IMG/VR virus record: IMGVR_UViG_2526164690_000022
Origin: a virus
Lineage: Duplodnaviria > Heunggongvirae > Uroviricota > Caudoviricetes
Strand: one strand, 5' to 3'
Length of the DNA: 45,440 nucleotides
Position numbers and translations under genes: made by a program. The notes below the pieces were generated by a model. The model saw only the letters and a list, made by a program, of their open reading frames with translations, did not search any database and had not been told where the DNA came from. Each line of letters begins with the position of its first letter. Position 1 is the first letter of the stretch. Below are positions 16,740 through 42,023 of the stretch, piece after piece.

Positions 16740-16768
16740 AAGCCCGCCATACCAAGCGGGCTTTTTGT
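16740..16768. terminator. Rho-independent terminator (probably bidirectional)
   Basis: agcccgc-cataccaa-gcgggct followed by ttttgtt; lies between convergent gene blocks. Confidence 0.6.
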
Positions 16769-17544
16769 TATTTCACCTCTTCTGCCGCTGTATCATTGGA
16801 CTGTTCTTCTTTGGCCCGTTCTGCAATCGCCGCACGGCATTTCGCCCTGGCTGTAGCGATTGCTTCTGCTCGCACATCGTCTGGAATCGTTGACGTGATA
16901 TACATATCCAGTTCTTCGGCACGGAATACTGTTTGGTCCAGATATTCGCGTAGCATCCAAGTAAATTCGAAATCACACGCGATAATCTCTGCGCTACCTT
17001 CTGCACCATTTGGGAAATGAATAAATGCCTGTTTAGCCAAACCGATAACACGACATGCGGTTGCCAAAACAGCGACAACCAGGTTTACATTTTCACACGC
17101 TACGGGCTGATTAACGCCGGAGATTACTCCATTTAACTGTCGGTTATATGGAAGGTAGTTTGAGATGCGTTCTACGCGCCATGTGCCAGTCAGGCTGCCA
17201 TTCTTAAAGATAATTGGTGTAACGGATAGCCCAAGCTCGCGTATAAGTCGTTGCGCTATAGCAGGATCATTAAACATGTCTAATGCTACACATTCGAAAG
17301 ACTGTGCAAGGGTAAACAGTTCTTCCAGAGAGTAGTCTTTGCCCCTGGCGGTGATGTAACGATGAACGCCGCTTTCTGCATCGCTCCATATAGCTACGCC
17401 ATGCTCTTCATTCAGCTCTTCATTAAAGCCGAGATACGTCATGATAGTACGTTCAATCGTGTCAAACGGCAGTGACATGTCGGCGTTAACAGCCACCAGC
17501 AGGCCATTACGCAAGCGGTATTGAATTGCTTTAGTATTTTCCAC
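16768..17544 (-). CDS. Hypothetical protein
   Basis: 258-aa ORF, last gene of the minus-strand operon. Confidence 0.45.
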   Translation of the reverse strand: MENTKAIQYRLRNGLLVAVNADMSLPFDTIERTIMTYLGFNEELNEEHGVAIWSDAESGVHRYITARGKDYSLEELFTLAQSFECVALDMFNDPAIAQRLIRELGLSVTPIIFKNGSLTGTWRVERISNYLPYNRQLNGVISGVNQPVACENVNLVVAVLATACRVIGLAKQAFIHFPNGAEGSAEIIACDFEFTWMLREYLDQTVFRAEELDMYITSTIPDDVRAEAIATARAKCRAAIAERAKEEQSNDTAAEEVK

Positions 17545-17550
17545 GTTAAA

Positions 17551-18228
17551 TCACTCCACTACAAACCAGTCACATGCCAGTAAGTCGCCTACAGAAGGAA
17601 CCCACGGAACAACTACACCTTGTGCATTTTTTAAGGCGAAATAAGCACCATACGGAACGAGGTCGCCGGGGAAATATCCCTTAATGGCTTCCATTCGTGC
17701 CGGGTACTGTCCTTCAGGAACCAGCCAGCAGAATTGGTTTTCGCCGTTCCACCCGCGTCGAGCAACTTTCTTGCCATCCTTCAGCCACATCAGCGCGTCA
17801 GAAAAGTCGGCTGCTTCAAGGTCGATTTCTTCTTGCTGGGTGGTGATGCCACCAGCAGAAATAGTTACGCTCCCGGTAAGATTAATCATCACGCCGTTGT
17901 CATCCGTAATGATGACCGTGGTTCCATTTTTGGAGGCGTCGTTAACCAGGCCATAGCGTTCCTCAAATGGTTTCTCCGGGGCATAGAACAGATAACCGTT
18001 TTCATAAACGATCAGATACCCGCCAGTTTTTGGTCGGTGTTTTTGTAAAAACATTGCGTCAACACAAACTGTTGCCCCTTTTGGTTCAACGAGTTCGATG
18101 CAGCCCCAAAGTGGGGCATCAGTTACTCCGAAAATAACAACATTTTTGATTTTCGATGCACTAACGTTTTTGTGAGCTTTGTATTTGGGAAGGAACTTAA
18201 AAAGCTCTTTCGTTGCCATGTTATTCAT
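17551..18228 (-). CDS. Two-domain protein with C-terminal DUF2829 (Tad2-like) domain
   Basis: C-terminal FSDALMWLKDGKKVARRGWNGENQ...VGDLLACDWFVVE fits the DUF2829 pattern as I recall it; N-terminal ~130 aa unknown. Confidence 0.5.
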   Translation of the reverse strand: MNNMATKELFKFLPKYKAHKNVSASKIKNVVIFGVTDAPLWGCIELVEPKGATVCVDAMFLQKHRPKTGGYLIVYENGYLFYAPEKPFEERYGLVNDASKNGTTVIITDDNGVMINLTGSVTISAGGITTQQEEIDLEAADFSDALMWLKDGKKVARRGWNGENQFCWLVPEGQYPARMEAIKGYFPGDLVPYGAYFALKNAQGVVVPWVPSVGDLLACDWFVVE

Positions 18229-18242
18229 AGTCTTTTCTCTGC

Positions 18243-18737
18243 TTATAACTTTTCGTACTGAAGCGGTGAACGCTTAATTTCAAAGTGGCCTTCCGATGTG
18301 CTACCAAAGCCACCAGCACCACGTTCCGTTTCGTTGAGTTCCTCAACCTCGACTAGTGAGACTTGTTCAACTCGTTCAAAAATTCCTTGCATGACAGCCA
18401 TTCCAGGCTTGAGACAAACGCCTTCCCCGCCGGGATCAGTAATCAGTTTTGCCATGATTTCGCCGCGATAATCGGAGTCGATAATTCCTACGCAGTTAGC
18501 CAGGCGAGTATGTTTTTTGCAGCCCAATCCGGATCGCGGATAGAGTTTCAGACACCAGCCGGGCGGGATCTCCATAGCCAGTCCGGTATACACCCACCAG
18601 CTTGAGGAAATTGCACCATTGCTATCGACGCATGGTTTTATTTCAACAGCCTCAAAATCCATCGCCGCCGATCCGGAGGTGGCATAAGCTGGAAGTTTTG
18701 CTGCCGGATGTAGGCGTTTCACTTTTACGTAAATCAT
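18243..18737 (-). CDS. dut: dUTP diphosphatase (dUTPase)
   Basis: GIIDSDYRGE motif and overall dUTPase length (164 aa). Confidence 0.8.
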   Translation of the reverse strand: MIYVKVKRLHPAAKLPAYATSGSAAMDFEAVEIKPCVDSNGAISSSWWVYTGLAMEIPPGWCLKLYPRSGLGCKKHTRLANCVGIIDSDYRGEIMAKLITDPGGEGVCLKPGMAVMQGIFERVEQVSLVEVEELNETERGAGGFGSTSEGHFEIKRSPLQYEKL

Positions 18738-19210
18738 TGTTTTTTAGCTCTCTGCGTGAAGGTGTAAACCCGACGTTTGATATGTGGAACGGTAGGAACA
18801 GGAAGACAGGAACTTTCAATAACTCCTTGCTCCTCCAGCGATCGCACCGCCCGCAAGAACTGCGACGTGTCGCCGCCAAACTGGCGGGCATAGGTGCTGC
18901 CGTTATGAAGTATTTGAGCTATTACCCGAGCTTTTGTCTGGCTGTCACGATATGCGAATAGCCGCACGGCCTCTTCTGGCGCAATCGCTAACTGATAGCC
19001 TTTCCCGGCACGGTGTCGAATGAATCCATGCGCCAGTAGGTTTTTGAGTTCGTTACGAGTGCGAACAGATCCGTAATCCAGGAAGTGTGGATTGATAACG
19101 ACTGGCTTAAACCATTCCGTAGGTGCTTTAGCTAATAGAGCTAACAGCTTCCCGGATAATTCTGGATAGGAAGACGGGTAACAATTCAGAGATGTGTAAT
19201 AAGTTTTCAC
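18734..19210 (-). CDS. Hypothetical protein
   Basis: 158-aa ORF coupled to dut. Confidence 0.4.
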   Translation of the reverse strand: MKTYYTSLNCYPSSYPELSGKLLALLAKAPTEWFKPVVINPHFLDYGSVRTRNELKNLLAHGFIRHRAGKGYQLAIAPEEAVRLFAYRDSQTKARVIAQILHNGSTYARQFGGDTSQFLRAVRSLEEQGVIESSCLPVPTVPHIKRRVYTFTQRAKKQ

Positions 19211-19551
19211 CGACGCCCCCTTGCAGGATAGCGACCTGCATTAGTATCCGGTGCAATAAAGCCGGTAGTGGGGCGAGTGAAAGCGAGATTAATCTTCTCG
19301 ACCATAGTGCGATAATTTTCCTGATAGTGGGCCAGGAGTTTTTCGGCGGCAATGATGGTTACTTTCCGGACGTAGCTTTCTGCTTCCTCCAGATTTCGCC
19401 AGTTTTTTTCGAGGGTAAACACAGGGACGGCCTCAAGCCCGGTCATGATGCCGAACACAACGACAGCATGACTGTTCTTAACACCAGCGGCGAAGGTTAC
19501 GGTGTAACCATCCACCTTAAAGCGTCTTGATTCCGTGATTTGACTCTGCAA
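19207..19551 (-). CDS. Hypothetical protein immediately downstream of the cre-like gene
   Basis: 114-aa ORF; same relative position as the cre-associated gene in P1. Confidence 0.4.
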   Translation of the reverse strand: MQSQITESRRFKVDGYTVTFAAGVKNSHAVVVFGIMTGLEAVPVFTLEKNWRNLEEAESYVRKVTIIAAEKLLAHYQENYRTMVEKINLAFTRPTTGFIAPDTNAGRYPARGRR

Positions 19552-20653: not shown

Positions 20654-20804
20654 GAAACTATTTAACCTCTATATACAGATGACGCTACGCGAAAAATATA
20701 AAAATGACAGGGTAGCTATAAGTTAATTTTCAAGATTCAAACCTTTGATTCGAGGCACGTATTTTCAGTGATGTCAACACTGATCATCCACCCATGATTA
20801 TAGC

Positions 20805-20838
20805 TTAACTTTAAATAATGCCAATTATTTAAAGTTAT
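20805..20838. promoter_or_regulatory. lox-like recombination site (13-8-13)
   Basis: ttaactttaaata-atgccaat-tatttaaagttat; arms are inverted repeats (12/13); right arm matches loxP TATACGAAGTTAT at 10/13; about 150 bp upstream of the cre-like gene. Confidence 0.7.
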
Positions 20839-25483: not shown

Positions 25484-25876
25484 CTACCAGCGAGACAAAC
25501 GAACAACATGTTTCACTTTTGCGATCCACTTTCCGCGATAACTATTGATTACGGCCTGTGCCAGCTTCAAATTGGCTTCAAAATCAGCCTTACTACCATC
25601 AGACTCCACCAGCATTCCTCCATCTATTTCTGGTAAACATAGATAATCCTGCTCAACCTGCAGCGGCATTGATGGCTCTCTGAATGGCGTTACTTGCTCT
25701 GCTTTCCAGCGAAATCTAACCCTCATCCCCCTGGTGGTCATTACTAGATAGCCTGTTATAGTGCTTTTATGGCCCACATCAGTACGCGTGGCATTGCATG
25801 ACACGATCTTACAGTTAGCGATAGACCACTCCATATTGGTGGCCTGTTGAGTGCTTAATTTGGTAGTCCCGTACAT
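25484..25876 (-). CDS. Hypothetical protein
   Basis: 130-aa ORF. Confidence 0.4.
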   Translation of the reverse strand: MYGTTKLSTQQATNMEWSIANCKIVSCNATRTDVGHKSTITGYLVMTTRGMRVRFRWKAEQVTPFREPSMPLQVEQDYLCLPEIDGGMLVESDGSKADFEANLKLAQAVINSYRGKWIAKVKHVVRLSRW

Positions 25877-26451
25877 CAGAAAGCCTCCCAGTCAGTCGCG
25901 ATAATATCCACACCAGTTGCAAACCAGTCTGTCTGCGCCTGTAAATCCCCATTCATCATTACCAGGCGAGGCATCACCATCACATCGCACCCTTCCACAA
26001 TATCGAATGCCTCTTCCGGCAAGAATTCGAAGAGCTTTTCTTTGCTGCCAATGCTGCCACGGAACATCGATATATAGCTCCCTTTAGGCCATGATGTCCG
26101 CCGGGCATCAAGCCCTTTCATCATCCAGTAAAAAGCCGAGGAAAAAGGGATATTCTTTTTGCCAATGATTACATTATTCGCTTCTGTGTACTTCAGGAAC
26201 TTAACTAACCTTACCATTGACTCGGATAACGCAACGTATGGCTCATGATTGATTGCTGACACGCTTACACCGTGCAATCCAACGCTTACCACTGTCATAT
26301 CGCCGCTCTGTGCGGTTTCGATATTGACGCCTTTGCGAACTAATGAGGCGTAAAGTTCCTCTCGCTTTTGGGTCCAGCGTTCCCGCTTCCCTATGAAGTC
26401 ACTCAAAATGAGATCTTCTTCTGCATATGCGTTATCGTTCGCCATTAACAT
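25876..26451 (-). CDS. Two-domain protein with probable C-terminal DUF2829 (Tad2-like) domain
   Basis: FSSAFYWMMKGLDARRTSWPKG ... DIIATDWEAF resembles the DUF2829 pattern. Confidence 0.4.
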   Translation of the reverse strand: MLMANDNAYAEEDLILSDFIGKRERWTQKREELYASLVRKGVNIETAQSGDMTVVSVGLHGVSVSAINHEPYVALSESMVRLVKFLKYTEANNVIIGKKNIPFSSAFYWMMKGLDARRTSWPKGSYISMFRGSIGSKEKLFEFLPEEAFDIVEGCDVMVMPRLVMMNGDLQAQTDWFATGVDIIATDWEAF

Positions 26452-26905
26452 AACGTCTCCTTTTTTACACGCGCGACTATCCCCCGGAAGTGCCGGTAGT
26501 GATGTCGTAAATTCGTATTAATTAAGGGGTACAGCCTGAGCGGCTATATGATGAATTGAAAGGAGTTGTGGCGGTGGTGCCTCCACCTGCCAGGTTAGCC
26601 ACTCCTGGCGACGTCACTTATCAGAACGTAGTGAATAAAAATGGCTTCGTCACGAGCGCATAGCCGCAATTACCACAACGGAAACGGTGCTCACGCTAAT
26701 TAAACGCCTTTTCCTGTTGTGCGCCGTGCTCTTCCGGCTGTCACACCGAATCGCCAGGATGGTGAGTCCTCGGTCCGCCACTGTTATCGGGGCTTGCACA
26801 TTCCGGCTACCTGGTCCGTTTGCCTGAGCAAGAGTCAAAGATACCCCTTTAACGTCACCAGACCGCTAACGACGCATGTGCCAGACGCCGTGTTACAACC
26901 AAATA

Positions 26906-26981
26906 TGGTGGCCCCTACCGGACTTGAACCGGTGACCGTGCGATTATGAGTCGCCAGCTCTAACCACTGAGCTAAAGGGCC
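26906..26981 (-). tRNA. tRNA with CAU anticodon, ileX-like (tRNA-Ile2 lysidine type; Met by anticodon alone)
   Basis: GGCCCTTTAGCTCAGTGGTTAGAGCTGGCGACTCATAATCGCACGGTCACCGGTTCAAGTCCGGTAGGGGCCACCA; full cloverleaf; close to E. coli ileX as recalled. Confidence 0.8.
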
Positions 26982-27135
26982 AGATTACTGTTAATTCCGC
27001 TTACGCTTTTTGCCAGGACCGCGTAAGGCTTTTGCTGCTTGCTCGACCCCATATGCAACCACCAGCAGAAATAAAAATGTCCACCAAGGGTTCTTGTCGG
27101 CAAACGTCCAAAATTCCATCATGTTATCTATTTGG

Positions 27136-27963
27136 TTATTTCACCGGAACAAACGGAACAGCGGTATTACTGGTCATATACTGCGGTAGCGTTCCGTTCC
27201 ATTTGTTGATCGCTTCCAACTCCATAACGCCGGGGTTCTGGCGCAGAGCCTCACCGCGTAAACGAATGGCATCAGCTTCAGCCTGGGCTTTTGTGCGAAT
27301 GGCATCGGCCTGTCCAGCAGCTTCTGCGCGCAGCATGTTGGCTTCTGCTTCGCGTTGCTTGACTTCCTGCTCGCGTTGCAGAGTTTTCTGGTTCGCCGTG
27401 ACTTTGGCATTAATGCTGTCGATAACGGTTGGCGGGTACTCCGGCTTGCCCACATATGAGAGGCTCATTACCTGAATACCGATGGGCGTCATTTCTTCCT
27501 GAATGTCTTTAAGGGCTGCATCAAGCAATTCAGATTTGCCACCGTCGATAAATTTGTCGGTGGTCATTTTGCTGGCTAACCGGTTCAGAGCATCTGCAAC
27601 CTTCTGGCGTAGATCGGTATCAGTAATATCATCTACACCTTTGCGATAGGTCTGAAATACCGTTGTGACTTTTGCTGGATCAACCTTGTAGGCTACGCCG
27701 ATGTGGTAACCAATGGTTGTTCCGTCGCTCATCTGGAAGCTGAACGGCTCGTCGTATGTCTTCATTTGCTTAAAGGTCGGGAAGATATAAACTTCAGTAT
27801 TCAAGCCTGTCCAGTAGCGACCAACGCCAACTACTTCACCGATACCTTTATCATCCCCCAGCTTATTTACTTTGATCCCTACGTTACCTGGCTCTACCCG
27901 ATCGCATCCGGTCAGACATAAAGAACCAAAAATAATCGCTGCACTAATCAACGTTTTTTTCAT
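27136..27963 (-). CDS. plp: SPFH/Band-7 family lipoprotein (plp-like)
   Basis: Lipoprotein signal MKKTLISAAIIFGSLCLTGC; SPFH-type body with Ala/Gln/Glu-rich coiled-coil tail. Confidence 0.65.
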   Translation of the reverse strand: MKKTLISAAIIFGSLCLTGCDRVEPGNVGIKVNKLGDDKGIGEVVGVGRYWTGLNTEVYIFPTFKQMKTYDEPFSFQMSDGTTIGYHIGVAYKVDPAKVTTVFQTYRKGVDDITDTDLRQKVADALNRLASKMTTDKFIDGGKSELLDAALKDIQEEMTPIGIQVMSLSYVGKPEYPPTVIDSINAKVTANQKTLQREQEVKQREAEANMLRAEAAGQADAIRTKAQAEADAIRLRGEALRQNPGVMELEAINKWNGTLPQYMTSNTAVPFVPVK

Positions 27964-28180
27964 TAATCAATTTCCTGGTTTTTTCACGAAAAAAGACTAC
28001 TGCAAAAGCCGGGTAAATGAGCGCGAGAAGGACTCCCAACAATACAAGTATTGTGCTGTCAGATGAGATCATATTTGGCAAAAGCCAAACATACAGAACC
28101 AGTGACACAATCAAACAGAGGACGACATAAATATATAACCGCACCCATAGCGTTCGACATTTGTTCGGATTGTTCTGCAT
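27944..28180 (-). CDS. Small membrane protein (upl-like)
   Basis: Two predicted TM helices (VVLCLIVSLVLYVWLL; LVLLGVLLALIYPAFAVVFF); overlaps plp start. Confidence 0.45.
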   Translation of the reverse strand: MQNNPNKCRTLWVRLYIYVVLCLIVSLVLYVWLLPNMISSDSTILVLLGVLLALIYPAFAVVFFREKTRKLINEKNVD

Positions 28181-28323
28181 CCTCTCACTCCATTATTTAC
28201 CGAATAAAAAAGCTGCGGTGCCTGGTGCCTCCAGGTGACGTTAACCAGTTAACAATTAACGCCGGGATGTTTGACTTAACCACTAAGGAGGATTGTTTTA
28301 ACTGTTCCGCGTGCGCTTAGCCG

Positions 28324-28882
28324 CATTCACCGCAATGGTAAGAGCACTTGGCTGGCTGGGCGGCGATGACGCCTGTACGCATTTGGTGATCCGGTTCTGC
28401 TTCCGGCATTCGCTTAATTAGCCAAATACTCTTAACGTTGCACTGGCGGAGAGTAATGGAATCGAACCATCATCGCTTGCGCAATGGGACGGTTTTCAAG
28501 ACCGCTTGAGCACCATGCTCCCTACTCTCCAGTGATTGTGATGGTCGGTGCTGAACTCCGACACAGGGTTGTAGCAAGCCCCGCAAAGCGCGCACTACTG
28601 TAGTTGCGGCACATCAGCCTGTGCATTCACCACAATGTTGAGAACACTGGTTGTCACGCTGCAACGCAACATTTATTCATAGATTGGGATATGACCCCGT
28701 TACGCCAGTGTTCTCAACGTTGTGGTGCCGGTTACGGTTCCGGCCAGGCCTCTTCCTCAACGGGGTGTTCTCCATACGGACTACCGTTTATTGGTCGTTC
28801 CTGCGGTTTATGTTGTGAAGCCAGATGCTTATCTTCTGGTTGCTTCAAAGAGCTGCACTTCATCACAACGGTAAGAGCACTC
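28324..28882. repeat. Family of ~23-bp repeats flanking the tRNA genes (four clear copies)
   Basis: caccgcaatggtaagagcacttgg (28326), caccacaatgttgagaacactgg (28628), inverted copy ccagtgttctcaacgttgtggtg (28706), catcacaacggtaagagcactcg (28860); degenerate fifth copy near 26676. Confidence 0.55.
28444..28530 (-). tRNA. tRNA-Ser (UGA), class II with long variable arm; atypical D-arm
   Basis: GGAGAGT...GCGGTCTTGAAAACCGT...GGTTCGATTCCATTACTCTCCGCCA; anticodon stem-loop matches E. coli serT as recalled; D-loop short. Confidence 0.6.
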
Positions 28883-28932
28883 GATGCATTTAAGCCAAGC
28901 CCCATAAGGGAGAATGCCCTTACCTGTTGTGT

Positions 28933-29008
28933 TGGTGCCGGTTAACGGACTCGAACCGCTGACATCCTGCTTACAAGGCAGGCGCTCTACCAACTGAGCT
29001 AAACCGGC
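28933..29008 (-). tRNA. tRNA-Thr (UGU)
   Basis: GCCGGTTTAGCTCAGTTGGTAGAGCGCCTGCCTTGTAAGCAGGATGTCAGCGGTTCGAGTCCGTTAACCGGCACCA; perfect acceptor stem. Confidence 0.85.
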
Positions 29009-29012
29009 AATT

Positions 29013-29099
29013 TGGTGGGGAGTGATGGAGTCGAACCACCCGAGTCGCAATGACAGTAGATTTACAGTCTACCCCGCTACCCCTACGGACTAACTCCCC
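29013..29099 (-). tRNA. tRNA-Tyr (GUA), class II
   Basis: Acceptor GGGGAGT/ACTCCCC; anticodon arm GTAGA-CTGTAAA-TCTAC; long variable arm; GGTTCGACTCC T-loop. Confidence 0.75.
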
Positions 29100-29104
29100 T
29101 AAAT

Positions 29105-29181
29105 TGGCGATGGTGGGTGGATTCGAACCACCGACCGACAGCTTAGAAGGCTGCTGCTCTATCCTACTGAGCTACACCATC
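29105..29181 (-). tRNA. tRNA-Arg (UCU)
   Basis: GATGGTGTAGCTCAGTAGGATAGAGCAGCAGCCTTCTAAGCTGTCGGTCGGTGGTTCGAATCCACCCACCATCGCCA. Confidence 0.85.
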
Positions 29182-30415
29182 ACTTGCCGGGTACGTCTCC
29201 GGCGAGGGCTTCCACCTCCGTATGCTTTTCGGCGCACCGCGCCCTGGCTGCAATTCGGTAACAGGGGATGCACAACCCTGGCTTCCAGCGTGATTAGCGC
29301 CTTCAGCATGACGGGATATACCCGTAGTAGGATGTTATCCCAGAAAGCCATTAATCAATGGCTGTTACGCGGGAGGGACGTAACAGGTAAGGGCGCTGAC
29401 CAGAAAGACCTGACCCTTCTCATTCATCTGGTTAATCACACCAGCGCCCTTGCCTGTTATGCCTCCCCGTTCCCTAATACACAGACGGGGACACTCTGCG
29501 GTCGATTTTTTGACGGGGGACGACTCATACCCCGTGGCGTCTGGCTTCTTAGGCCGCTACCATCATCAGATCATCGTTTGCATTTACTTTAATGGTCGGT
29601 TTCTAAACCGCCGCAAAGTCGCTAACCATGACGAAAACCCTAAAAAAGCCCACCCGAAGATGGGCAAATACGCTACATCTCACACAAGAAAGAAGCCGAC
29701 TGCCTGAGCTGGATTCACTTTCAAATGCCCGCAGAAAGGGATCACAAGTCGGCTTCTTTCTTGATGCGGCACTCTCTCCGCCCGTCACCGCTCTGTCTCG
29801 GTTGTCGCGTTTGCCACGCCAGCCGTAACGAGGTTTAAAGTCTTTACACGTTTCCATCACTCGACTGCCGTCTGTGGCTGTTCGTTGCAGCGGGGGTGCC
29901 TCCCCCTGGGGATATCCCCGGCCTTACCCCATTCTTTCAAGACACAATGCAAGACCACATCCGCATAGGTGCATTACCGCAACATTAAGGAGACTCAGGG
30001 CAAAAGGTAACCGCCACAAAAATCCCTATGCCTCCTTAATGTTGAAGATGTGCATTGATGATTAGATGCAGCATGTACCGTTACTCTCTGCCGGACCATC
30101 ATCAATGAACACCTTAAAAAGACCTTCCGTGGCTCAACATGTATTGTCGTTTACTCCGCAAAGTGCTCTCTCTGAAACCACTTTCCGCACTAAACCTGCT
30201 GAACTTTGGCCTGCACGGTGCCAAAGCGTGCTCTTGCATTACCATACTTTTCTAACACTTTAATTTGTTAAATGCTGGTGGGCGAACAATAACCAATAAG
30301 TGACTATCAAGCCCAGCAAGCGAAACGTGGGTACTGCCCACCAGCAAGGAAAATTCTATGTTAAGTTATCTCCACAATCAATACATTCGAATTGTGATTT
30401 TAGATTTCTAACACA
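29182..30415 (-). ncRNA. ORF-free, hairpin-rich region at the 5' side of the tRNA operon (candidate structured leader / stable RNAs)
   Basis: No credible ORF over 1.2 kb; several long perfect inverted repeats with 40-50-nt loops (e.g. 17-bp stem 29685-29701/29748-29764); operator-like motifs at 30250 and 30406. Confidence 0.3.
30250..30274. promoter_or_regulatory. Operator-like inverted pair ttctaaca-N8-tgttaaat
   Basis: Member of the dispersed TTCTAACA family; upstream (minus-strand sense) of the non-coding region and tRNA cluster. Confidence 0.35.
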
Positions 30416-40600: not shown

Positions 40601-41086
40601 ATGGCAAACATTGAACCTCGCTGGCTAATTGAAGCCCGTAAGCACATTGGCCTGACTGAAATAAAAGGCGCTAAACACAACCCTGAAATCGTTCAGTTCT
40701 GGCGCGACATCAAGCGCGGCGGAATTAAAGACGATGAAACGCCGTGGTGCGCAGCATTTGTCGGTGCAATGCTGGAACGTGTAGGCATCCGCTCAACAAG
40801 ATTTGAGTCGGCAAAATCCTATCTGGATTGGGGCGAGAAATTAGATACACCGGCATACGGATGTATCGTTGTATTTACCCGCGTAGGCGGTGGGCACGTA
40901 GGCTTCGTTGTCGGACGCCGCGCCAATGGCGATCTGCTTGTCTTGGGTGGGAACCAGGGGGATGCGGTTAATATTCGCGCATTCCCAACATCAAGAGTGT
41001 CTGGCTATCGCTGGCCTGCTGGCGAACCACACAATACCGCTCTGTTACCAGTCGGAGACGCAGCAACCTCAACTAATGAGGCATGA
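40601..41086 (+). CDS. CHAP/NlpC-P60-like protein (TIGR02594-like), possible peptidoglycan hydrolase
   Basis: TPWCAAFVGAML ... GGGHVGFVVG pattern (Cys/His of a papain-like fold); moderate. Confidence 0.45.
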   Translation: MANIEPRWLIEARKHIGLTEIKGAKHNPEIVQFWRDIKRGGIKDDETPWCAAFVGAMLERVGIRSTRFESAKSYLDWGEKLDTPAYGCIVVFTRVGGGHVGFVVGRRANGDLLVLGGNQGDAVNIRAFPTSRVSGYRWPAGEPHNTALLPVGDAATSTNEA

Positions 41087-41118: not shown

Positions 41119-41319
41119 TCAAGTCACGATCCAATCATTACCGACTATATCAGCCGTCGATAAATCAACTTCCCGGATCTGGAGTCCATTAATACAAAAC
41201 CATCCGGTAGTAGAGTAATTATCAGGCCAGGCCCATACACCAACACTCCATGCTTTACGGCGGCACACTTCAGCCTGTCCTTCCCTGATTTTTTTTACCG
41301 CCTGCATGATGTCCATCAC
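41119..41319 (-). CDS. Small stand-alone DUF2829 (Tad2-like) protein
   Basis: 66 aa; AVKKIREGQAEVCRRKAWSVG ... DIVGNDWIVT fits the DUF2829 pattern. Confidence 0.4.
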   Translation of the reverse strand: MMDIMQAVKKIREGQAEVCRRKAWSVGVWAWPDNYSTTGWFCINGLQIREVDLSTADIVGNDWIVT

Positions 41320-42023
41320 TCACCTCCCCAACCGATCACCTGGAATTGCCCCATTTTGGGGTGATACCAGCGTTTTCCTCGGTGTTCAGCCTCCGACATC
41401 ATCCGGTTAAAAGCATTCATGAAGGGAGATAAGGCCACGATGGAACGACGCGACAATACCCCCTCTGGAGTTAAAAACTCATGTGTATCGGTGGGAATCC
41501 GGTAAGCGTTGACAAGGTTGCGACATTTGGCTTCAGTCAGGCCGCATTTCGCCGCCAGCTGGCGGTAGCCAATGTAACCATCTGGCATATTGCCCTTCTT
41601 GATTTGCTCGACGGTTTCAGCGACCTGGCTAACCTTTGACTCAACAGCATGAAGCCGCTTTTGCTGCTGAACTGCATTTGCAGCCATTGCGGCGATCATC
41701 TCTATTTCGGTCAACGGCTGGCGTACTTGTTCTTCCAGTTCGCGCCAGCGGTCCACCAGCCGGGCGGTGAATTCCGGAGAGAGCTGCGCAACGACAATGA
41801 TACTGTCTCGTTTGCCTTGCTCGTCGCTAAATCGGAACACCTGAATTAATCGAGAACGCCCCATTACATCTATTTTTGGTTCATCCTCAATTTGAGGACG
41901 AACAATAACGCCGGATTCGGCTAATGTTTCAATGGTACGCTTCACATTGTCATGACGTTTTCCCACCAGCTCCGCGATCTCAATGCTGGTCATTGATGGC
42001 TTTTCAAGAATGCAGATATCCAT
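41316..42023 (-). CDS. ant: Antirepressor (Ant/Rha-family phage regulatory protein)
   Basis: N-terminal HTH-like MTSIEIAELVGKRHDNVKRTIETLAESG; translationally coupled (ATGA) to the upstream 74-aa icd-like ORF. Confidence 0.55.
   Translation of the reverse strand: MDICILEKPSMTSIEIAELVGKRHDNVKRTIETLAESGVIVRPQIEDEPKIDVMGRSRLIQVFRFSDEQGKRDSIIVVAQLSPEFTARLVDRWRELEEQVRQPLTEIEMIAAMAANAVQQQKRLHAVESKVSQVAETVEQIKKGNMPDGYIGYRQLAAKCGLTEAKCRNLVNAYRIPTDTHEFLTPEGVLSRRSIVALSPFMNAFNRMMSEAEHRGKRWYHPKMGQFQVIGWGGE

Follow-up and report, generated by a model that had tools for sequence, protein, structure and literature searches.

The window analysed here, a stretch of 45,440 nucleotides of viral DNA (IMG/VR record IMGVR_UViG_2526164690_000022), matches Escherichia phage D6, a P1-like plasmid prophage with the Dre/rox recombinase, with ~98% identity over nearly the full window length. 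It represents a D6-like plasmid prophage of Escherichia coli, the accessory genome of which harbours three paralogues of the Tad2 family (Pfam PF11195 'Tad2-like', formerly DUF2829). The best overall explanation, to which a probability of roughly two in three is assigned, is that one of these proteins, designated Tad2-A, is a sponge of the ModTad2 type equipped with an accessory N-terminal module and an exchanged Tad2 cassette, and that the other two, Tad2-B and Tad2-C, are divergent paralogues. The three open reading frames (ORFs) named in the original prediction are indeed present, all on the minus strand: Tad2-A (17551..18228; 225 amino acids, aa; D6 orf114, here in full length), Tad2-B (25876..26451; 191 aa; D6 orf6) and Tad2-C (41119..41319; 66 aa from the GTG at 41319 or 65 aa from the ATG at 41316; D6 orf17).

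The PF11195 gathering cut-off of 25 bits was passed by Tad2-A (80 bits, residues 141-224) and Tad2-B (39.1 bits, residues 103-190), and Tad2-C stayed below it (15.1 bits, E=0.034, residues 2-65). The assignment of DUF2829 to all three proteins, for which a hidden Markov model (HMM) search had been proposed, is thus borne out for the first two and sub-threshold for the third, so that the count becomes two certain domains and one probable, highly divergent one. A PF21825 (Sequestin) domain was detected by Pfam scan in none of the three. Tad2-A comprises an OB-fold beta-barrel homologous to the OB domain of the phage L protein Dec (17941..18192, minus strand; residues ~13-96), a beta-rich stalk or linker aligning with the trimer-forming C-terminal spike of Dec (17818..17940, minus strand; residues 97-137) and a Tad2 domain of the ModTad2 type (17554..17817, minus strand; residues 138-225).

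Tad2 sponges are an established phage counter-defence, and their basic identification adds little. 'Tad2 AcrIIA7 (anti-Thoeris)' was reported for 93% of D6-like and 56% of P1-like phage-plasmids (10.1101/2025.09.12.675607), probably the same gene(s), by an automated screen that recorded presence only, without paralogues, architecture or mosaicism. Since Tad2 in D6-like phage-plasmids was thereby published and RefSeq names two of the three genes, the novelty of the basic call had originally been overestimated. What sets Tad2-A apart from known Tad2 systems is its architecture and evolutionary behaviour: in the searchable literature, coverage of which is incomplete, no description was found of a Dec-like OB-stalk partner, of a three-paralogue set or of exchange at the cassette level.

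Tad2 domain, ligand pocket and cassette exchange of Tad2-A

Residues 138-225 of Tad2-A match ModTad2 (9EIB with His-ADPR; 8V3E apo) with E=6e-21 and ~47-50% identity; across the beta2-beta3 insertion, the alignment is interrupted by only one gap of one residue. The next matches are HgmTad2/AcrIIA7 (E=1e-11) and SPO1 Tad2 (E=1e-9), with bit scores of 77, 48 and 42 for ModTad2, HgmTad2 and SPO1, respectively. Among these three characterised Tad2 proteins, ModTad2 is thus the closest to Tad2-A and displays the same insertion architecture. The fold of Tad2 (an N-terminal helix, then an antiparallel sheet that contains the beta2-beta3 insertion) was recovered for Tad2-A. In addition, Tad2-A matches phrog_872 over its full length, belongs with the 97% identical cluster P0001 (389 members) and carries the PGAP name 'DUF2829 domain-containing protein'; a Tad2-A-type gene is present in 213 of 5,426 complete E. 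coli genomes, and the plasmid in NZ_CP050999 has a gene 100% identical to that of Tad2-A in full length.

Ligand contacts have been described for SPO1 Tad2 (W25, N26, W73, S76 and D79; 10.1101/2023.05.01.538930) and HgmTad2 (W21, N22, W87, S90 and D93; 10.1101/2023.11.15.567273). All five of these core residues of the pocket for ADP-ribose (ADPR) are present in Tad2-A (W160, N161, W209, S212 and D215), which is the only one of the three paralogues with a complete set, and four of them (W160, W209, S212 and D215) are invariant in an alignment of 37 homologues. SPO1 Tad2 and HgmTad2, the founding gcADPR and cyclic-dinucleotide sponges, share Pfam family, fold and the core of the gcADPR site with Tad2-A, but are only ~39% identical to it, and the insertion forming the cyclic-dinucleotide site of HgmTad2 differs in length and sequence; in Tad2-B and Tad2-C, at least two of the five core residues are altered relative to these founding members. 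ModTad2 (also MoTad2, from a Myroides odoratus prophage) is a stand-alone protein of 89 aa, in contrast to Tad2-A with its 137 additional N-terminal residues (OB domain plus stalk). The ModTad2 clade, to which a homologue from the enterobacterium Tatumella belongs, inhibits type II Thoeris. MoTad2 blocks Pycsar and has a second site at which it binds cUMP and cCMP, cyclic pyrimidine mononucleotides (10.1101/2025.08.24.671296); furthermore, it binds 2'cADPR, not 3'cADPR (10.64898/2025.12.03.692087).

One insertion-cassette type of Tad2-A alleles (e.g., clusters P0007, P0018, P0045 and P0048) has the pocket loop R-G-W-N-G changed to R-E-W-K-G or R-G-W-K-G, and the same Asn to Lys type also possesses a shortened insertion. 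These alleles suggest an alternative ligand specificity circulating within one gene.

The Tad2-coding segment has a history of its own within the gene. Compared with the allele of a P1-type element (plasmid NZ_CP080059), synonymous divergence (dS) and the ratio of non-synonymous to synonymous divergence (omega) amount to 0.53 and 0.48 for the OB codons and to 0.76 and 0.41 for the stalk, and none of the 264 nucleotides of the Tad2 block differs. The island of 100% identity to NZ_CP080059 extends over ~17540-17800 and is bordered by 63-80% identity upstream within the Tad2-A gene and by 43-67% downstream within the adjacent isaA-like gene. Of 192 records from complete E. coli genomes that matched the Tad2 block (megablast), 142 did so with at least 99% and 189 with at least 95% identity; of 219 that matched the OB block (blastn), 155 showed 60-80% identity. 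In this comparison of two search programs, up to ~27 records with diverged or alternative Tad2 cassettes may be absent from the first set. Since the Tad2 block is near-invariant while the OB block of the same gene has diverged, this indicates that the Tad2-coding segment is exchanged as a cassette between D6-type and P1-type phage-plasmids. Variation inside the domain is concentrated in the beta2-beta3 insertion, for which 16 sequence types can be distinguished at 60% identity versus 5 and 6 for the flanking domain parts, and some proteins are near-identical apart from swapped insertions. In HgmTad2 and MoTad2, this insertion builds the second ligand site; its variability has been noted before (10.1101/2023.11.15.567273).

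Judged from homology, an anti-defence role of Tad2-A is well supported. In the proposed mechanism, the C-terminal 88 residues would assemble as a Tad2 homotetramer, and the pockets at the protomer interfaces would sequester ADP-ribose-derived alarm molecules made by TIR proteins. The likeliest ligands would be His-ADPR and/or 2'cADPR (types II and VI Thoeris); in addition, the beta2-beta3 insertion may form a second site for cyclic pyrimidine mononucleotides (Pycsar). The host effector would thereby be held inactive during infection, induction or plasmid residence. The N-terminal half would serve as an accessory scaffold or second binding module, not as the core of the activity. The Tad2 segment behaves as a recombination cassette of D6-type and P1-type phage-plasmids with the insertion loop as its diversifying part. 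Tad2-B is a constrained two-domain member of the family with an altered pocket and probably a different ligand or function, and Tad2-C is probably a stripped-down, very divergent Tad2-like domain expressed together with an antirepressor.

Several points weigh against this explanation. The nearest characterised protein is just ~47-50% identical to Tad2-A, and the specificity-lining positions, T/D/A/S in ModTad2 (corresponding to T65/D67/H71/T78 of SPO1 Tad2), are N/Q/V/G in Tad2-A; as positions lining the base side of the pocket differ from SPO1 Tad2 as well as from ModTad2, the exact ligand cannot be read from the sequence. About a quarter of tested sponge homologues blocked none of seven systems, and the literature searched contained no experiment on Tad2-A, Tad2-B, Tad2-C or close relatives. 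A trimer-forming stalk would clash with the tetrameric symmetry of Tad2, and the unequal searches behind the identity counts of the Tad2 and OB blocks belong here as well. With respect to the paralogues, Tad2-B has Pro in place of the pocket Asn, and the model of its C-terminal domain is unusable (predicted local distance difference test, pLDDT, <45). Tad2-C falls short of the Pfam cut-off, lacks the pocket Asn and the second Trp, and shows 4 synonymous and 7 non-synonymous changes, 11 substitutions from which dN/dS is uninformative.

If the sponge reading of Tad2-A is upheld, P1-type and D6-type phage-plasmids exchange anti-defence domains in the form of cassettes, the ligand-site insertion being the part that diversifies. 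The carriers occur commonly among clinically important E. coli, Shigella and Salmonella, and the presence of as many as three Tad2-like paralogues on one element may, on the same proviso, affect the tolerance of plasmid-prophages as well as signalling defences against therapeutic phages.

The divergent paralogues Tad2-B and Tad2-C

Tad2-B (25876..26451, minus strand) consists of an N-terminal domain (residues 7-92) and a divergent Tad2-like domain (residues ~103-190). The latter was recognised by profile comparison with the Tad2 domain (hhalign 96%, P=4e-9), and three of its five core pocket residues are identical (W121, P122, W176, T179 and D182 in Tad2-B). AlphaFold2 yielded a confident model for the N-terminal domain only (residues 7-92; alpha-alpha-beta3-alpha), which displays a weak topology of the dsRBD type; fold searches with it returned no significant structural relative, and single-sequence searches of the PDB with Tad2-B and Tad2-C returned nothing relevant. 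In comparison with an allele of 90% DNA identity, omega is 0.086 overall, 0.12 for the N-terminal and 0.045 for the C-terminal domain, and the low values of both domains indicate that both halves are functional and constrained. Among 50,697 phage records Tad2-B was found in D6 only; in 98 of 5,426 complete E. coli genomes it resides on ~90-kb plasmids. PGAP usually names it 'Thoeris anti-defense Tad2 family protein' and at times 'MW1434 family type I TA system toxin' (TA, toxin-antitoxin). That Tad2-B is a sponge with a distinct ligand is plausible, given Pro and Thr in place of the pocket Asn and Ser.

The exhaustive HMMER search with Tad2-C produced 7 matches. One of them, P0134, a PKD-repeat protein, was rejected as a spurious repeat match; on PF11195, the relatives P0137 and P0136 scored 23.9 and 14 bits, respectively. 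A five-sequence alignment of the Tad2-C family was compared by hhalign with an 87-sequence Tad2-domain alignment from which Tad2-B and Tad2-C had been left out, and matched over the full length (79%, P=1.6e-5, score 29.9); 200 column-shuffled controls gave scores of 10.5 +/- 2.1 and did not exceed 16.8. Tad2-C is, therefore, a probable distant relative of Tad2. Its pocket retains at most three of the five core residues (W24, placed within +/-1 position, S25, V51, S54 and D57), the second pocket Trp having no conserved equivalent in the Tad2-C family, and the whole beta2-beta3 insertion is missing.

Directly upstream of Tad2-C and translationally coupled to it lies a gene for a Rha/Ant-type antirepressor (ant; 41316..42023, minus strand; PF09669, phrog_63). 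The stop codon of ant and the ATG of Tad2-C overlap (TGATG), and GGAGG is located 6-11 nucleotides upstream. In the relative P0135 (313 aa), a Tad2-C-like domain forms the C-terminus of a Rha/Ant-type antirepressor, and the gene overlap in the window together with this single protein mark ant and Tad2-C as a fusion/fission pair. No prior description of a fusion of Tad2-C relatives to Rha/Ant antirepressors was found in the literature searched. Tad2-C occurs on plasmids in 97 genomes, where it is annotated as 'hypothetical protein'.

These features raise the question whether Tad2-B and/or Tad2-C are degenerate and bind no nucleotide, Tad2-C rather being an accessory module of Rha/Ant in the lysis-lysogeny switch. 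The replacement of the WN pair by WP in Tad2-B and WS in Tad2-C, the loss of the second Trp and of the insertion in Tad2-C, and the coupling or fusion of the latter to the antirepressor agree with degeneration. Anti-defence genes are, however, common in early and immunity operons, so that the position of Tad2-C fits a sponge equally; the C-terminal domain is the most constrained part of Tad2-B; and even among typical Tad2-A alleles there is one cassette type with Lys instead of the pocket Asn. Degeneration is, therefore, regarded as possible but as having clearly less than an even chance. Divergent but Tad2-derived paralogues remain the preferred reading for both proteins, within which the anti-defence interpretation of Tad2-C is weak.

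The Dec-like N-terminal half of Tad2-A and its significance

The original prediction described Tad2-A and Tad2-B as fused to unknown N-terminal domains without recognisable motif. The two-domain architecture was confirmed, and the N-terminal part of Tad2-A can now be identified as Dec-like (OB-fold plus stalk) and as sharing a motif with Dec; for Tad2-B, the weak dsRBD-like topology is all that was added. In the AlphaFold2 monomer model of Tad2-A, residues ~13-96 form a confident small beta-barrel (pLDDT 82-93), followed by four short strands of pLDDT ~50 at residues 97-137. Phage L Dec was matched only weakly by the single sequence (E=0.014), and more firmly by profiles built from whole Tad2-A (E=1.5e-6) or from the N-terminal part only (11 sequences, E=4.1e-7). 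Tad2-A residues ~54-132 align with Dec 51-129 (aligned block at residues 56-131, Dec 53-129), reaching into the C-terminal spike, and both proteins contain the motif PE-x-GGYL ... G-x-L-x-Y ... AFE-x-x-Y. In Dec, the OB domain (residues 12-89) touches the capsid and the last ~40 residues form a trimeric spike that is unfolded in the monomer (PMC6449081, PMC11398494). Because the spike behaves in this way (PMC11398494), the low pLDDT of the Tad2-A stalk is expected for a segment folding only in the oligomer. Dec (6E3C) thus resembles the N-terminal half of Tad2-A in OB fold, motif and a subsequent beta-rich segment disordered in the monomer, but is a 134-aa capsid-binding trimer and virion protein, whereas the module of Tad2-A is fused to a sponge domain, encoded in an accessory operon and dispensable. 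At least two sequence types of the stalk occur among the 37 aligned homologues, and a Pfam scan of the 11 N-part sequences found no family for the OB-stalk module. Kinship between the N-terminal domains of Tad2-A and Tad2-B was tried and rejected (hhalign probability 0.2%).

The N-module of Tad2-A is dispensable, as follows from three kinds of natural variants. First, orf114 of phage D6 contains a 237-bp in-frame deletion between two CAAAAA repeats (residues 21-99; window ~17932..18168), which removes the OB domain and implies that the window carries the ancestral, full-length form of the gene. Second, P0055 represents a natural dUTPase-Tad2 fusion of 241 aa (15 member sequences from 4 contigs of up to ~88.6 kb), in which the dut sequence '...ERGAGG' continues into 'ITTQQEEIDL...' of the Tad2-A gene and the whole OB-stalk part is gone. 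Third, among 117 Tad2-bearing cluster representatives, a set biased by the full-length Tad2-A query, 76 possess the OB module and 31 other N-terminal regions. A C-terminal extension is found in 24 of the 117; it corresponds to PF21825 in all three that were scanned (P0062, P0071 and P0097) and, by precomputed Pfam calls, in most others.

Fusion of Tad2 to other sponge domains is known and led to the discovery of Sequestin (10.1101/2025.07.12.664507). The Acb4-Tad2 and Tad2-PF21825 fusions follow the same principle as Tad2-A, close relatives of which have a C-terminal PF21825; the partners encountered in the window (Dec-like OB-stalk and dsRBD-like alpha/beta domain), in contrast to Acb4 and PF21825, are not known sponge families. 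Tad2 fusion partners having already given one new sponge family, the Dec-like module, which is widespread among phages as a stand-alone protein, is a concrete candidate. It appears unlikely, yet deserves mention, that the OB-stalk of Tad2-A or, separately, the N-terminal domain of Tad2-B is a functional second 'head', i.e., a new binder of an immune signal or host immune protein, or else a device for tethering to the capsid or an oligomer. Tethering would change where and when the sponge acts, for instance through higher-order or virion-associated sponge assemblies. A true second head would mean that D6-like phage-plasmids carry a modular toolkit composed of a near-invariant Tad2 cassette and interchangeable partner domains.

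Another reading makes Tad2-A and Tad2-B two-headed inhibitors, each blocking two pathways by means of new signal- or immune-protein-binding domains. The frequent joining of Tad2 to other sponges (Acb4, PF21825), the logic by which Sequestin was found, speaks for it, as do close relatives combining OB, Tad2 and PF21825 and the purifying selection on the N-terminal domain of Tad2-B (omega 0.12). Moreover, the OB module also exists as a stand-alone protein of ~90 aa in phages of Ralstonia, Pseudomonas, Klebsiella and Burkholderia, with the conserved polar motifs P-[KR]-Y-[KQ]-C-H-K ... K-I and GGY ... Y-S-P ... F-E-x-G-Y. Against it stand the rapid evolution (omega ~0.48, dS 0.53) and repeated loss of the OB module, in which Gly, Ala and hydrophobic core residues make up most of the positions invariant among the 37 homologues, and the lack of a significant structural relative for the N-terminal domain of Tad2-B. 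Inhibition of two pathways by each protein is, accordingly, considered doubtful.

A Dec-like module could alternatively imply that Tad2-A is mainly a capsid decoration protein, with OB domain and trimeric stalk bound to the capsid and Tad2 as a displayed or virion-carried appendage. Such a role would agree with the low pLDDT of the stalk in the monomer, as for the Dec spike (PMC11398494), with the location of a stand-alone OB homologue between the portal and major head genes of Ralstonia phage GP4, and with gp96 of Pseudomonas phage Dolphis, an OB module with a different C-terminal extension that is annotated as 'capsid decoration protein'. The GP4 homologue, however, also lies beside a gene for a CsrA-like regulator, so that this region is not purely structural. 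Of the capsid contacts of Dec, those of site 2 (Y71/E73) are not kept in Tad2-A (N77/Y79), and those of site 1 (K30, Y31 and Y49) fall outside the alignable part. Instead of belonging to a head module, the Tad2-A gene is located in a string of accessory genes or behind ssb; D6 is viable without the OB domain, and many alleles have other N-terminal regions; and a sponge on the outside of the capsid has no evident route into the cytoplasm of the next host. A principal function in capsid decoration is, therefore, improbable, and the ModTad2-type sponge with an accessory N-module is retained as the preferred reading.

Finally, a function of the DUF2829 proteins as AcrIIA7-like anti-CRISPRs or 'MW1434 family' type I TA toxins is highly improbable: HgmTad2 was first published as AcrIIA7 and NCBI applies the toxin name to some Tad2-B alleles, but the published anti-CRISPR activity is not reproducible and HgmTad2 is a sponge, the MW1434 label was traced to a bioinformatic list without experiment on that protein, an NCBIfam scan of Tad2-A, Tad2-B, Tad2-C and P0128 gave no match, and the sequences read as soluble-type domains rather than small membrane peptides.

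Gene neighbourhood and further features of the window

Tad2-A is part of a tightly packed gene string on the minus strand (orf117-orf116-dut-Tad2-A-isaA-like), in which neighbouring genes overlap or are separated by no more than 14 bp and which is located downstream of dre behind a 73-bp gap; transcription units are judged from gene packing. At the head of the string, the overlapping orf116 and orf117 (18734..19551, minus strand) match phrog_6669 and phrog_1968, both of unknown function, and have no Pfam match. Directly upstream of Tad2-A lies the dUTPase gene dut (18243..18737, minus strand; PF00692 with 54 bits, and D6 annotation), and 6 bp downstream an isaA-like gene (16768..17544, minus strand), the 258-aa product of which has no Pfam or PDB match. 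Scanning 4.7 kb for promoters yielded a single consensus match, which is below the number obtained with shuffled sequences. It is a sigma-70-like TTGGCA-16-TATAAT (20797..20824, minus strand; 11 of 12 consensus positions) upstream of dre, a possible source of read-through transcription into the Tad2-A operon.

The proposed operon with dUTPase is confirmed by dut ending 14 bp upstream in this tight string, but it is lineage-specific, as the P1-type gene follows ssb. In P1-type elements (SJ46; plasmid NZ_CP080059), the Tad2-A orthologue is located after ssb and is followed by an isaA-like gene. The conserved partner in both D6-type and P1-type elements is thus the isaA-like gene, not dut, which makes the former a candidate functional partner of the Tad2-A-type gene. 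The ssb operon of phage P1 is under control of the C1 repressor via Op21, which would make expression early and derepressible. At its ssb site, phage P1 itself encodes no Tad2 domain (IsaA, IsaB).

In Bacillus phage JL, a Tad2-like gene abuts the dUTPase gene. Several Vibrio phages possess Tad2-like genes under the labels 'methionyl-tRNA synthetase' or 'anti-sigma factor', which are probably mis-annotated DUF2829 genes.

Downstream, Tad2-B is abutted by orf5 (25484..25876, minus strand; 130 aa), for which the PDB search remained empty. On its other side, five tRNA genes (Met, Ser-TGA, Thr, Tyr and Arg-TCT) were identified at 26906..29181 on the minus strand, where the D6 record has Ser, Thr and Asn. 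The surrounding region (~26720..29668) matches elements of the P1, RCS47 and Ro157c2YLVW type with 92-94% and includes Plp, Upl and a SPFH-domain lipoprotein as features; from this match and the tRNA set, the accessory module seems to be unlike the tciA/tciB region of D6. Between darB and Tad2-C, a stand-alone gene on the plus strand (40601..41086) codes for a 161-aa protein of the CHAP-domain/TIGR02594 type, to which the D6 annotation gives the name 'baseplate hub subunit and tail lysozyme'.

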